From: Scenedesmus sp. PABB004
Taxonomy: Eukaryota
Direction of reading: 5' to 3'
Length of the DNA: 64,000 nucleotides
NCBI GenBank assembly: GCA_014905635.1
Contig: JABVCE010000026.1
Location: 434,001-498,000, forward strand
Shown piece after piece: positions 40,123 through 45,800 of this stretch. The notes beneath the pieces are model-generated. The model made no database searches. It had not been told where the DNA came from and saw only the letters and a program-made list of their open reading frames with translations. Every line of letters starts with the position of its first letter. Position 1 is the first letter of the stretch. The translations under genes and the position numbers were made by a program.

Positions 40123-42366
40123 ATGGCGACGCGGCGCGTGGCGCTGCTGGAATGCGAGGACGCCCCGAAGTGGGCGGGCTACACTGAGAGCGTGAGCTGC
40201 GGCCGGCGCGGCGGGGGCGCTGCTGCTCGCGCGCCTCACGCCCCACGCGCCGCCGTGCAGTTATGGCGCGCTGCCGTGGAGGAGCCCGGTGACGAGTGGC
40301 GCGTCTGGCGGGTGCGTGCTGCTAGCGGCGGCAGCGGCAGCGGCGGCAGCGGCGGCGGAGCAGCAGCGGCGTCGCGTTTGCTCGGGCCGGCGCGTCGCCA
40401 GGGCGCGCCGCGCAGCTGCGCCGCACGCCCCTCCCTCAAGCTCCCGCGCTCTCGCTCTCCCACCGCCGCCGGGCCGCCGCCGCGCAGGCATGCGCCGGCG
40501 AGCTGCCGACGGCGGACGAGGCGGCCGCGTGCGACGCTGTCATCGTCGGCGGCAGCCACTACTCCGCCTATGAGGACCACGTCTGGATCCAGCGCCTGCT
40601 GGAGCTGCTGCCCGCGTACGCAGCAAGCGGCGCCCGCATCTACGGCTGCTGCTTCGGCGCGCAGGCACGGGTCCGGGGCGCGCGCGCCGCACCGCGTGGC
40701 GGCCGCGTCGGCGCAGCGCGCGGCCCTGCAGCCGCGGCGGCGGCCGGCCCGCGACGCCGCGCGCCCGGCCTGTGCGCAGATCCTGGCGCGCGCGCTGGGT
40801 GGCGAGGTGGGGCCCAACCCGGACGGCGCGTTTGTGCTGACGCTCGAGTCGGTGCAGCCGACGCCGGAGCTGGCGCGGTTTGAGGGGCTGCACGCCGCGC
40901 TGCAGGCGGACCTGGCGAGCGGCGACGGCGCCGCGGCCGCCGCCGCGCCGCTGCCGGCAGACGCCGCGGGCGCCGCGCTGGCGGCGCTGAGCCTCTCGCC
41001 GCCGCCCGGCGGCGACGAGGCGCGCGCGGCAGCGGCCGAGCAGCAGGCGGGGGCCGCGGCAGCGCCCGGCGGGCTGCGGCTGATCGAGTCTCACGGCGAC
41101 CAGGTGCGGCGGCACGGTGCGCGCGGCTGGGCGGCCGCGCCCGCGGCGGCGCACCACGCGGCCCGCCCGCTCGCCTGTGCGCCTCGCCAGGTGCTGGCGC
41201 TGCCGCCCGGCGCGGTGCGGCTCGCCACGAGCCCGACCGCGGCCAACGAGCTCTGGGCGTGGGGCCCCAACGTGCTGGCGAGCCAGTTTCATGTTGAGTT
41301 TGATGAGCCGCTGGTCCTCCAGAAGATCTGGGCCACGCTGCGCGACGCGGGCCGGCTCTCGCCGGAGCAGGCCGAGGCGAGCCGGCGGTCGCTGGCGGGC
41401 GGCGGCGCGCAGAGCGCGCGCGCGCTGCGTGTCATCAAGCACTTCCTGCGGCACGGCGCCGGCGACGCGGCGCGGCCGCCCGGCAGCAGCGCCGGCGGCG
41501 GCGGGGGCAGGGGCGACGGCGGCGCCGGCGGCGCGCCCGGCGGCGACGGCGGCGCACTCGGCGGCGGGAGCGCGCCTGCCGACGGTGCGCCACCACAGCA
41601 GCAGCAGCAGCAGCAGCAGCAGCCACCAGGCCCAGGCGCCGCACCGCCGCCGGGAGCGGCGGCTGCCGGGGAGCCCCTGCAGCCAGGGCTGCCGCCCCTG
41701 CGGGTGCCCGCGGACGCCGCCGCAGCCGCCGCCACGCGCAGCAGCAGCTGGCCGTCGGGGCTGGCCGGCGCCGACGCGGCGCCGCCGCACGGCTCCGCGG
41801 CGCCGAGCGGCGCGAGCAGCCCCACCGCCGCGTCGGAGGCGAGCTGGGCGGGCACCGCCAGCACGGCGAGCACGGTGCCGTTCTCTGTCATCGCCCACCA
41901 GCGCCGCGCCGCGGCGCGCGAGGCGGAGCTGGGCGAGGCCGCGGGCCGCATGGTCGGCGACGCGGACGCCGCGCTGCAGCTGCGCCTGCGCTTGTCCGGG
42001 CTCGACCTTGACACGCTCACGCAGCTCAACGCCGCGGCGGCGGAGGCGTACGGCGGCGCGGCCGAGCTCGCCGCGGCGCTGGGGCAGTTTGTGTCGGACC
42101 TCGGCGCGCGCCAGGCGGCGGTGCGCGAGGCGCTGTGCGCGCTGCCCGCGCTCGACCGCCAGCTGCGCGCGCTCGAGGGCACCGTGTCGGGCCTCGACCG
42201 GCGCAGCCGCGAGCTCGAGGCGCGGCTCGGCCTCGGCCGGGGCCGCGGCGCGTACGACTACCTGGCTGCCGCGGCGGGCAGCCTCAGCCGCGCCGGCAGC
42301 AGCGTGACGGCGGCCGCGGGCGGCGGCGCCGGCTGCCTCGGCGGCGGCGCGCTGCCGCGGCAGTGA
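40123..42366 (+). CDS. Class I glutamine amidotransferase-like (gamma-glutamyl peptidase/GMP-synthase type) protein with a C-terminal BLOC1S2-like coiled coil, about 5 exons
   Basis: IVGGSHYSAY, WIQRL, IYGCCFGAQ|ILARALGG, ESHGDQ|V..LPPGA, QFHVEF (Cys-His-Glu triad); tail LDTLTQLN..Y..LEGTVSGLDRRSRELEARL. Confidence 0.85.
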   Translation: MATRRVALLECEDAPKWAGYTESVSCGRRGGGAAARAPHAPRAAVQLWRAAVEEPGDEWRVWRVRAASGGSGSGGSGGGAAAASRLLGPARRQGAPRSCAARPSLKLPRSRSPTAAGPPPRRHAPASCRRRTRRPRATLSSSAAATTPPMRTTSGSSACWSCCPRTQQAAPASTAAASARRHGSGARAPHRVAAASAQRAALQPRRRPARDAARPACAQILARALGGEVGPNPDGAFVLTLESVQPTPELARFEGLHAALQADLASGDGAAAAAAPLPADAAGAALAALSLSPPPGGDEARAAAAEQQAGAAAAPGGLRLIESHGDQVRRHGARGWAAAPAAAHHAARPLACAPRQVLALPPGAVRLATSPTAANELWAWGPNVLASQFHVEFDEPLVLQKIWATLRDAGRLSPEQAEASRRSLAGGGAQSARALRVIKHFLRHGAGDAARPPGSSAGGGGGRGDGGAGGAPGGDGGALGGGSAPADGAPPQQQQQQQQQPPGPGAAPPPGAAAAGEPLQPGLPPLRVPADAAAAAATRSSSWPSGLAGADAAPPHGSAAPSGASSPTAASEASWAGTASTASTVPFSVIAHQRRAAAREAELGEAAGRMVGDADAALQLRLRLSGLDLDTLTQLNAAAAEAYGGAAELAAALGQFVSDLGARQAAVREALCALPALDRQLRALEGTVSGLDRRSRELEARLGLGRGRGAYDYLAAAAGSLSRAGSSVTAAAGGGAGCLGGGALPRQ

Positions 42367-42897
42367 GCGGGCGGGCAGGCGCCGGGGCTGGTCGGCGCGC
42401 TGGTAGCCGGATTGCTCTGCCCCGCCCTGCCTCTTCGCCACGCTCAACGCCGACCCAGCCGCCCGCCTGCCTGTCCTGTCGCTAGGCCCTGCAATCGCTG
42501 GACGCACAGGGGTCCCCCCCACCTGGCTGAAAACCTCACCCGCTCGCCACTGCAGCAACACAGTGCACAGCGTGCGGTGCGCGCTCCCCAGGCACACTCA
42601 CACAAGCAGCCCGCCACAGTGCACGGCGGGGCGCGTGCCGCCGCCGCCGCCCAGGACACAGCTCAGAGCTCGCCCACTCCCCCCAGCACTGTGCGGCCGC
42701 GCGCGGTCATCGGCGCAAGCAACAGCCCCCACCCATGTCAACACCCGCCGCCGCCCTCCTCCCCGCCCTCGGCCCCCGCTGCCCCGGGCGCGCCCGCTGT
42801 GTGCTGCAACCCTCGGCGCGCCGCCCGGCCGGCCGCGCGCGCGACCGCCCGGCCGGTCCGCTGCCCTGGCCGGCGGCGTGCGCGGCGCGTGCCGCGC

Positions 42898-45800
42898 TCA
42901 CGCGCAAAACATGTACAGGCTGTTGGCCGACGCGCACGCGACCACGTCGGCGCCGGGGTGCCACGCGAGGTGCAGGACCTTGCTGCCATAGTCCTGCGAG
43001 GTGCCGGGGCCCTGCTCCGCCGTGGCCATGGGGTCGCGGCTCGCCTCGAGCGTCGCGCCGCCGCGCAGCAGCCCGCCCGGCAGCCCGCGCCACGGCGCGC
43101 CGCCGCCGCCGCGCGCGCGGGGCGGCCCCGCCGCGTCCACCGCGTCCGCGCCACAGCCGCCGACGCCGCCGGCGCCGCTGCCGGGCGCCGCCGCCGGGGT
43201 GAGCGCGTCCCAAGCAGAGAACACGCGGAAGCTGTTGTTGTACGTCCCGGTCGCGACCGCGGCGCCGTCGCCGCTCACGGCGCAGCCAAACTTGTCAAAC
43301 ATGCAGTCGTTGTCGTACAGGTCGCACAGCTGCGGGCGGGCGGCAGGCACGGGGCGCCGGGCGGCGGCGGCGGGCGGCGGCGGCGGGCGGCGGCGGGCGG
43401 CGGCGGGCGGCGGCGGCGGGGGCGGCGCGCACATGCATGAGCCGGCGCGCCGGCGAGCCAGGGCGGGGCGAGCCGCGGCGGCCGAGCCCCGACCCCTCGG
43501 CGCGCCGGCGGCGCTGCGCGGCGCGGCGTTGCGCGGCCCCGGCGGGCGCGCACCCGCGGGCGCAGGTGCTCGTGCACCGCGAGCGTCGCGAGCGGGCGCG
43601 CCTCGGCCGCGAGGTCCCACACGCGCAGGGCCATGTAGTCGCGCGAGAGCAGGTAGCGCCCGCATGGCGAGAAGGCGATCGCGCTGGTCGAGGCGATGAC
43701 GTCGGAGAAGAAGCTCCGCGGGCCGCCGCCCTGCGGAAGAGTGGGAGGGAGGGGGAGGGAGGGGCGTGAGTGCGTGCGCGCGGGCGGGCGCGCGGGCGCG
43801 CGGGGAGTGGAGGAGGGGCCGTGCGGCGCGGCCGGCGGCGGCGGGGCCGCGCGTCGGGCGCGGGGCGCGCCGCCGCGCACCGGCGGCGGCGCCTCCTCGT
43901 AGACCTTTGCGCTGCGGTCGCACAGCGCGGCGGCGCGCATGTCGGCGAGCCGCACGCAGCCGCGGCTGCTCGCATACGCGAGCGTTGCGCAGTGCGAGGG
44001 GTGGAACTGCACGCTGGTGATGACCTGCGGCCAGGGGGGGGGGCAGGGCGGCGAGCAGGGGGCGGGGCGGAGAGGGGCACGGTCGGCGCGCGCAGCCGCG
44101 CGCGCGCTCGCGCCTGAGGCCCCGCTGCAGCGGCCCGGGCGCCGCGACCCAGGCCGGCGGCGGCGGCGCGGCGGGGCCACCATGCCAGCGGCGCGGCCTG
44201 GCCGCCCCTAAACCCTAAACCCCTGTAGACCCACCTCGGCGAGGTCGTCCATGTTGGGCGGCTTGAGGTCGACGAGCGTGAACGCGGCGCGCTGCTCCTC
44301 GAGGCTCCACAGGTTGATGCGCAGGTCGTCCGCCGACAGGAAGGTCGCCTGGTCGCTGTTGACGCTGAGCGAGTGGATGTGATACGTGTGGCCGTTGGCA
44401 AACACGCGCCGCGCGCGCGACACGAGCGCCGCCTCGCGCGCGGCCACGCGCGGCAGGCGCAGCGCGCCGACGCTGCCCGGTGGCGCCGGCGCGCGCGGCG
44501 CGGCGCACGCGGGCGCGGCCGCGGCCTGCGGCGGCGCGGCGGCGGCGGCGGGTGCGCGTTGGCGGCGGCGCGCCAGGCGGCGCGGCGCCGCGCTGCGCGC
44601 GGCGCACTCACGCCGCGGCGGCGTGCGGGGCGCCCCACTCGGTGACGACCTGGCTGCGCCTCTCATACACCTGCGCGCACGCGCGCGGCGCGCGGCGCCG
44701 CTCAGGCGGGCGCGGCGGGGCGCGTGGCGGCGCGGCCCGGTCGCGCGACCGCGCCGCCCTGCCGCGCCGCGCCGCGCCGCGGCCGCGGCCGCCGCGCCTT
44801 CCAGAGCTTGATGGTCTTGTCGTTCGTCGACAGCAGCGCGTGCGACCGCCCGCCGGGGAGCCACTGGATGGCGTTGATGCGCTCCTCGATCTCCAGTGAC
44901 TTGAGGTAGTCAAACTCGGGCTCGTGGCTCTGCAGCTCAGTAAGGTAGCGGTACTCAAACCCGGGGCCCCACGCCGGCGGGCCCGCGGGCCGCGCGTCGG
45001 GCGGCGCCGGGCGCTGCGCGCGGGGGCGAGAGCGCGGCGCGAGCGTGGGCACGTGGGCGCGCGGGCGGCGCCGCACTGCGCCGCACGGCGCGCGAGGGGC
45101 GCTCGCGGCGAGGCGAGGCGCGCGCACCGGCGGCGCGGCGACGCGCTCAAACAGCACCACGCGCCCGCCGCGGTCGCCGGTGGCCAGGAAGGAGCCGTCG
45201 CGGTCGAACTGAACCGCCGAGATGACGTCGGCTGGCGGGCCAGGCGCGGCGGCAGCGGCGGCGCGGGGCGGTGAGGGCGCGGCGTGCTCGGGCAGAGCGC
45301 CGCGCGCAGGGCCGGCCGGCCAGGCGGCGGGGGCGGCAGCGCCCGGCGGGCGCTCAAGCGGCGGCGTTCCGGCGGGCACTCACGCTCTTGTACCTCCTCG
45401 TCCGGCGTGCGCTCGCCGAAGCACTGCAGAAAGTGCCACGGCCCCGGCGCGCCCCGGGCCGGCGCGCAGCGCTGCCCGCCGCTGGCGGGCGCGTCCCAGG
45501 CTGCTGCGCCGCCCGCGCAGCCGGGGCCGGCCTGCTGCGGCTGCGCAGCGCCCGTCGGGGCGGCGGCGCGCCCGGCCGCCGCCGCCGCCGCGGCCTGGTC
45601 GCCCTGGCCGCGCCTGTGCAGCAGGCGGCGCAGGCAGCCGTCCGCCTCCTCCGGCGCCAGGAACAGCCCGCAGCACGGCTGCGCGCAGCCCGCCTGCAGC
45701 GCCGCCAGCAGCTGCGCGACGCTGCGCTGCGCCGGCGGCGTGGCCGACAGAAACTGCTGCAGCGACGCCAGCGCCGCGGCGCAGCCGGGGCGGTGGAGGC

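Follow-up and report, generated by a model that had tools for sequence, protein, structure and literature searches.

A gamma-glutamyl peptidase-like domain joined to the BLOS2 subunit in Scenedesmus sp. PABB004 and other green algae

Can a subunit of an endolysosomal sorting complex carry an enzyme on the same polypeptide chain? This question is raised by a gene at positions 40123 to 42366 in a stretch of 64,000 nucleotides from Scenedesmus sp. PABB004 (assembly GCA_014905635.1, contig JABVCE010000026.1, positions 434,001 to 498,000 of the forward strand). The whole stretch is termed the window and all coordinates refer to it. [quoted passage not shown] Here we examined whether the two parts belong together and what such a protein might do. 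The best explanation, drawn from sequence comparison and a structural model, is that the gene encodes the BLOS2 of the alga and that the protein consists of a peptidase domain of the gamma-glutamyl peptidase 1 (GGP1) type, a linker of about 135 residues which is predicted to be disordered, and a BLOS2 coiled-coil module at the C terminus. The fusion of GGP and BLOS2 is very probably real. That the protein functions as a subunit of BLOC-1/BORC and bears an active gamma-glutamyl hydrolase is likely, with less assurance.

The tail matched the Pfam family BLOC1_2 (PF10046) with 43.1-45.4 bits (E 1e-11 to 6e-11), above the curated cut-off of 33.4 bits. The match covered positions 3-95 of the 96 in the profile and corresponds to 41950-42228 in the window. 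BLOC1_2 was the sole Pfam family at E≤10 for three overlapping queries, i.e. the last exon and two shorter cuts. The supposed likeness to BLOS2 was borne out by this profile check; as far as the sequence tells, the tail is a true BLOC1_2/BLOS2 domain and no generic coiled coil. Two family profiles were then used, A1 consisting of 18 aligned fusion proteins and A2 of 11 BLOS2-type sequences including the window tail. Against the PDB, A2 had one match only, the BLOC1S2 chain 9tqb_H (E 1.3e-17), and A1 matched the same chain at E 5.2e-17. An AlphaFold2 model was built from A1, that is from 18 sequences only, and had a mean predicted local distance difference test score (pLDDT) of 73. It predicts helices at residues 438-523 and 525-552 (41881-42225), with mean pLDDT values of 74-87 in 10-residue blocks over residues 441-550. 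The fusion family retains the LN...Y core of BLOS2, in which N487 is invariant and L483 nearly invariant. In its full-profile Pfam match, its family-profile match to 9tqb_H, its predicted long helices and its LN...Y core the module resembles BLOC1S2. The protein differs in size and in what it adds. Stand-alone BLOS2 proteins retrieved in the same searches have 124-187 residues (P0094, P0118, P0123, P0093), and about 120-190 residues are the mark of the small stand-alone form; the Scenedesmus protein has 598 and brings along an N-terminal enzyme domain, a long linker and a clade-specific C-terminal extension.

Is the combination found elsewhere? With the last exon as query, phmmer matched 119 representatives among 1.84 billion cluster representatives (E≤1e-3). 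A Pfam scan of 60 proteins found GATase and BLOC1_2 together in 24. Both curated cut-offs were passed by 16 of these; in the other eight, the Scenedesmus protein itself (P0003) included, one domain scored below its cut-off. The other 36 had BLOC1_2 only (25), GATase only (10) or neither (one, P0030), and many of them were short pieces or visibly incomplete models. Searched against a set of 5.8 billion proteins, A1 gave at least eight matches at E≤1e-20. Two-domain proteins came from Tetradesmus obliquus, Chromochloris, Raphidocelis, Chlamydomonas sp. UWO 241, C. eustigma, C. incerta and Volvox africanus, and likewise from Botryococcus, [Myrmecia] bisecta, Symbiochloris, Micractinium, Parachlorella, Chlorella sp. 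A99 and Cymbomonas. Both domains were also present in open reading frames (ORFs) of transcriptomes, namely P0040, which is marked 'complete', and P0058 from Dolichomastix tenuilepis, a member of the Mamiellophyceae by lineage look-up. The remaining genera we take to belong to the Chlorophyceae, the Trebouxiophyceae and prasinophyte lineages. Contigs of marine picoalgal metagenomes carry two-domain genes in a single ORF, e.g. P0076 with 432 residues, which stands for a 45-member cluster that includes one gene found on 106 contigs. The architecture sought on the strength of the initial annotation thus recurs in several chlorophyte classes. In P0004, P0008 and P0009 one frame leads from the end of the enzyme (...IK(H/Y)FL...) through a different, Ser/Asn-rich linker into BLOS2. 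Linkers of this kind point to a lower G+C content, at which an open frame would be less likely to arise by chance.

One of the stand-alone BLOS2 proteins is named Mesen1/ME000369S06381 in the Joint Genome Institute (JGI) data and presumably stems from the streptophyte alga Mesotaenium. In Arabidopsis, BLOS2 is a stand-alone protein. The picture suggested by these sequences is that the fusion arose in the chlorophyte lineage and that streptophytes keep GGP and BLOS2 as separate genes. Judged from the proteins compared, the fusion is the usual form of BLOS2 across the Chlorophyta and not peculiar to Scenedesmus sp. PABB004.

The coding sequence lies on the plus strand, with an ATG at 40123 and a TGA at 42364-42366. 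The spliced five-exon model yields 598 residues and is identical, letter for letter, to P0003, which is deposited at NCBI as 'GGP4 [Scenedesmus sp. PABB004]'. The coordinates first given for the gene proved right, as did those of the last exon, and both the QFHVEF motif and the long helix near the C terminus were present as described. The parts of the gene are as follows.

40123..40191, plus strand: exon 1, 23 codons from the ATG, N-terminal beta-strand of the GGP-like domain (MATRRVALLECEDAPKW...)
40261..40311, plus strand: exon 2, 17 codons
40488..40664, plus strand: exon 3, 59 codons, nucleophile elbow GCCFGAQ with the catalytic Cys95 at 40650-40652
40780..41103, plus strand: exon 4, 108 codons, GGP-like core, Ala-rich insertion and SHGDQ motif
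41191..41469, plus strand: first part of exon 5, residues 208-300, end of the GGP-like domain
41470..41874, plus strand: linker in exon 5, residues 301-435, rich in Gly, Ala, Pro and Gln, predicted to be disordered
41875..42228, plus strand: BLOS2 module in exon 5, conserved lead-in PFSVIAHQRR and then the BLOC1_2 domain (Pfam match 41950-42228)
42229..42366, plus strand: C-terminal extension in exon 5 and stop codon, with an AYDYLA...GCLGGGALPRQ tail from 42250

Three introns have GT-AG boundaries, with intron 1 reading GTGAGC...CAG, and one is of the GC-AG type. The latter is intron 3 (40665-40779, donor GCACGG) and the same boundary is used in the deposited model. Because the junction of exons 3 and 4 restores the invariant ...CFGAQ|ILARALGG..., the non-canonical GC donor seems to be real. 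The enzyme part of exon 5 holds three C-terminal helices and ends with VIKHFLRHG. Its QFHVEF motif at 41284-41301 contains His241 (41290-41292) and Glu243 (41296-41298). No targeting peptide precedes the first strand in exon 1, and the N-terminus is kept in orthologues.

Which enzyme was joined to BLOS2? Profile A1 matched Arabidopsis GGP1 (PDB 9k7i) at E 2.6e-47 over residues 22-128 and 156-256 of the 260 in the chain. A Foldseek search with the model gave GGP1 entries at all of ranks 1-7 (E 1.5e-20 to 2.1e-19; template modelling scores of 0.84-0.86 normalised by target). The pLDDT of the enzyme domain is above 90 apart from the Ala-rich insertion. Cys95, His241 and Glu243, which align with C100, H192 and E194 of GGP1, do not vary in any of the 18 fusion proteins aligned, nor do F96, G97 and Q99. 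The initial annotation had noted an intact Cys-His-Glu triad of a GATase. This was correct and can be made more precise: sequence and model support an N-terminal half which is a GGP1-like, putative gamma-glutamyl peptidase of peptidase family C26 with the class-I GATase fold. The GATase subunit of GMP synthase (GuaA N-domain; PDB 1wl8, 2lxn) shares fold and triad. However, its matches to A1 are far weaker (E 1e-15 to 1e-18 vs 2.6e-47 for GGP1) and the fusion proteins lack the synthetase partner domain.

In GGP1 the glutamate moiety is held by the side chains of S68, Q104 and D157 and by the main chain of H70 and Q156 (PMC12958103). In the profile alignments the counterparts of S68, Q104 and D157 are kept as the Ser of GSH.., the Gln of CFGxQ and the Asp of SHGDQ. 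As the triad is complete and the residues which hold the gamma-glutamyl group are retained, we propose that the tethered domain may cleave gamma-glutamyl bonds. GGP1 is the top match in sequence and in fold and has the same triad and the same glutamate-holding Ser, Gln and Asp. A further likeness to the cytosolic GGP1 (PMC9804317) is that the first strand of the window protein is not preceded by any signal or transit peptide. GGP1 and GGP3 are described as cytosolic glutathione-degrading enzymes with Km values of 3.7-5 mM (PMC9804317). On the other hand, GGP1 is a stand-alone enzyme, with a 260-residue chain in its PDB entries (9K7I/J/K/L), and the window protein has an additional Ala-rich insertion. 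This insertion comprises about 50 residues (about 40915-41067, residues ~145-195); its length varies by species and its pLDDT is 52-79.

Fused proteins of this type have already entered the published record. A survey in PNAS in 2024 (PMC11513930) lists subunit matches in its Dataset S1. The BLOC1S2 rows retrieved from it for three algae are fused proteins: GAX81858.1 (539 residues) and GAX86468.1 (349 residues) of C. eustigma, XP_042923042.1 (472 residues) of C. reinhardtii and XP_022840611.1 (433 residues) of O. tauri, at 309-477% of query length (PMC11513930). For GAX81858.1 and XP_042923042.1 the next reverse match given there is 'GMP synthase [glutamine-hydrolyzing]'. The main text of the survey contains none of the terms 'amidotransferase', 'GMP synthase', 'GATase', 'fused' or 'N-terminal extension', and no description of the fusion was found in the full-text literature searched, subscription journals and the SI Appendix of PMC11513930 lying outside its scope. 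The remark in the initial annotation that such a fusion was not known to be described holds to this extent; yet the sequences themselves were public, and the survey table uses them silently as chlorophyte BLOC1S2. As far as searched, the fusion itself is undescribed.

Are there partners for such a subunit? Among the rows retrieved, Dataset S1 has BLOC1S1 in C. eustigma, M. pusilla, O. tauri and C. reinhardtii, along with BORCS8 in C. reinhardtii and BLOC1S6 in O. tauri (PMC11513930), which indicates that partner subunits exist in chlorophytes. The C. reinhardtii match to BLOC1S1, XP_042928385.1, is itself large, with 730 residues (579% of the query) and a long C-terminal region of low complexity. 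It may be another oversized BLOC-1 subunit or an artefact of its gene model. In BORC the N termini of the subunits are directed toward a central joint and the termini are unstructured (PMC12846789). This makes a domain tethered to the N terminus sterically plausible.

We can then envisage how the fusion protein might operate. The BLOS2 helices would assemble with BLOS1 and other small helical subunits into a complex of the BLOC-1/BORC type, which would sit on endosomal or vacuolar membranes and face the cytosol. There the tethered enzyme would cleave gamma-glutamyl bonds, be it in glutathione, in glutathione conjugates or in another gamma-glutamyl or glutamine substrate. What the comparisons show is the gene structure, the identity of both domains, the invariant triad, a fusion conserved across the phylum and, in the model, a disordered linker; complex assembly, catalytic activity, substrate and the benefit of the tether are what we infer.

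Several observations weigh against this explanation. In GGP1, the cleavage of glutathione depends on Arg206, which binds its Gly residue, and Cys154 forms an inhibitory disulfide (PMC12958103). At the Arg206 column none of the 18 A1 sequences has an Arg; the family consensus and P0058 have Ala, and P0003, by our reading of the alignments, has Thr256. The regulatory Cys154 is replaced by Ser, and the position of the pocket residue Tyr212 is a conserved Arg in the fusion proteins. Since conservation extends to the gamma-glutamyl pocket and not to the side of the leaving group, glutathione may not be the substrate, and to name it as such is a guess. P0003 alone scored below the Pfam GATase (PF00117) cut-off, with 20.5 vs 22.8 bits, because the Ala-rich insertion splits the match; the remaining 23 two-domain relatives all cleared it with 23.1-48 bits. 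The window tail alone, searched against the PDB, matched no BLOC1S2 chain and gave just lamin coiled-coil noise (E 0.35-0.58), so that the match to the BLOC1S2 chain holds at the level of the family profile only. Three deposited two-domain models from Tetradesmus obliquus (P0183, P0184 and P0007 with 682, 418 and 376 residues, the latter two on different records) treat differing amounts of insertion and linker as intron. As these models disagree on splicing, the linker length of the mature protein is uncertain in this clade. Lastly, judged by eye, the N-terminal part of the O. tauri protein XP_022840611.1 resembles a degenerate GGP domain from which the cysteine motif CFGxQ is missing, and catalysis may be dispensable in some lineages. 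Other sequences of the Mamiellophyceae type, P0053, P0076 and P0058, keep the catalytic cysteine.

In another reading the fusion is real, but the GGP-like domain is mainly a ligand sensor or a structural module which regulates a BLOC-1/BORC-type complex, with glutamine, glutathione or a gamma-glutamyl compound as ligand, and not a metabolic enzyme. The apparent loss of the cysteine motif in O. tauri and the absence of both the glutathione-specific Arg206 and the redox-active Cys154 of GGP1 would fit such a role. However, none of the 18 aligned proteins departs from the triad, whether they belong to the Mamiellophyceae (by lineage look-up) or to genera which we take to be Chlorophyceae and Trebouxiophyceae. 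An active enzyme would show such strict conservation. Moreover, the CFGxQ and QxHxE motifs occur together in 90 of 187 collected proteins. We consider the sensor improbable, although it is the strongest of the competitors to a catalytically active subunit.

Somewhat less probable still is that the BLOS2-like helices merely oligomerise or localise the enzyme and that the protein stands outside any BLOC-1/BORC-type complex. In its favour, the set of BLOC-1/BORC subunits recorded for chlorophytes is reduced: Dataset S1 has three C. reinhardtii rows on the sheet concerned, and for O. tauri BLOC1S1, BLOC1S2 and BLOC1S6 are among five matches in the file (PMC11513930). Yet the fused proteins are the recorded BLOC1S2 of C. 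reinhardtii, C. eustigma and O. tauri, and BLOS1 is retained in the same algae (PMC11513930). The conserved BLOS2 core with its invariant N487 also speaks against helices which serve the enzyme alone.

How much does the open frame itself contribute to the case for a fusion? The last exon is indeed a single open frame of 391 codons plus stop, as had been pointed out initially, but as an argument for fusion this carries little weight at the base composition of the window. The G+C content is 75-83% in each 2-kb block (~80% overall) and the six frames contain 57 stop-free runs of at least 392 codons. For the 253 codons between the start of the last exon and the BLOS2 domain the chance of being open is ~0.125 (~1 in 8) at the mean stop density of the window. 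An antisense run of 685 codons without stop (40540-42597, minus strand) overlaps the gene. As stops are rare at ~80% G+C, long ORFs in the window are no evidence of genes. Introns and flanks have 77-90% G+C (introns 82-90%), and G+C by codon position separates coding from non-coding DNA poorly. In the linker, G+C at third codon positions is 0.78-0.98, with a dip to 0.78-0.84 in 41491-41715 and 0.90-0.98 elsewhere. By itself, the open frame through the last exon is weak evidence for a fusion, and the case therefore rests on homology and on conservation in other genomes.

In the linker, residues 304-434 have pLDDT values below 50, are not alignable across classes and vary among orthologues in length and sequence. 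An SSPTAASE-type motif at 41815-41838 recurs in eight relatives of the Sphaeropleales type and may be a candidate phosphorylation or docking site. The lead-in segment PFSxIAxQR (41875-41907), conserved as PF[SA]x[IL]AxQR, lies in the same frame upstream of the ATG at 41950. This ATG encodes Met461, at which the BLOC1_2 Pfam match starts exactly. In 16 relatives with the lead-in [VIA]PF[SA]x[IL][AE]xQ[RH] the corresponding residue is M in five and L or V in 11. The predicted helix starts at residue 438, 23 residues ahead of Met461, and Met is absent from the rest of the linker. Because lead-in and helix start lie upstream of Met461, a BLOS2-only product from this ATG would be truncated at its N terminus relative to the conserved module. 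The possibility, named in the initial annotation as one that would count against a fusion, that the tail is made only from its own start at 41950 found no support in these data. At the other end, the C-terminal extension (42250-42363) is conserved in close relatives as AY(D/E/G/N)Y(L/I)...CLGG..., including a Cys near the C terminus; its pLDDT is low save for a short helix at residues 561-575.

A gene-model artefact, in which two neighbouring genes, one for a GGP-like enzyme and one for a small BLOS2 with its start at 41950, were merged only since stops are rare at 80% G+C, would be in keeping with the abundance of long open frames, the one-in-eight chance of an open stretch and the Pfam match beginning at Met461, but is very improbable in view of the two-domain order that recurs in 24 of 60 relatives including transcriptome ORFs, single-ORF genes from metagenomes and proteins with different Ser/Asn-rich linkers, of a Met461 that only five of 16 relatives share, of a conserved segment and a helix start that precede it, and of the lack of a stop for a separate enzyme gene, in any frame, ahead of the BLOS2 region.

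Of the flanking ORFs scanned with Pfam, none upstream of the gene had a match. Downstream, a convergent ORF on the minus strand (42898-43320, ending at 42898-42900) had a WD40 score below threshold (17.5 bits vs a cut-off of 27).

What does a GGP1-like domain on BLOS2 mean for green algae? [quoted passage not shown] Here the green-algal BLOS2 is linked to a relative of GGP1 with intact triad, from the picoplankton to Chlamydomonas and Scenedesmus. For annotation, the names 'GGP4', 'glutamine amidotransferase domain-containing' and 'GMP synthase-like' hide the BLOS2 identity; JGI names some of the metagenomic fusion proteins 'GMP synthase-like glutamine amidotransferase'. The fused orthologue of C. 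reinhardtii, XP_042923042.1 (locus CHLRE_07g346650v5; PMC11513930, Dataset S1), makes the link directly testable. With regard to function, the fusion may tie sulfur and glutathione metabolism to endolysosomal sorting. In the furthest-reaching version, the sorting complex of the BLOC-1/BORC type would throughout the phylum include a catalytic subunit of its own, with a gamma-glutamyl peptidase attached to BLOS2 close to the central joint; this is a tentative proposal which we regard as possible but doubtful. If true, glutathione, gamma-glutamyl or glutamine status would be coupled directly to the trafficking or positioning of vacuoles and lysosomes; alternatively, glutathione conjugates would be processed at the site of their transfer to the vacuole. 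Taken as a 'Rosetta stone', the fusion would in that case also predict that in land plants, where GGP and BLOS2 are separate proteins, the two are functionally linked in a way not suspected so far.

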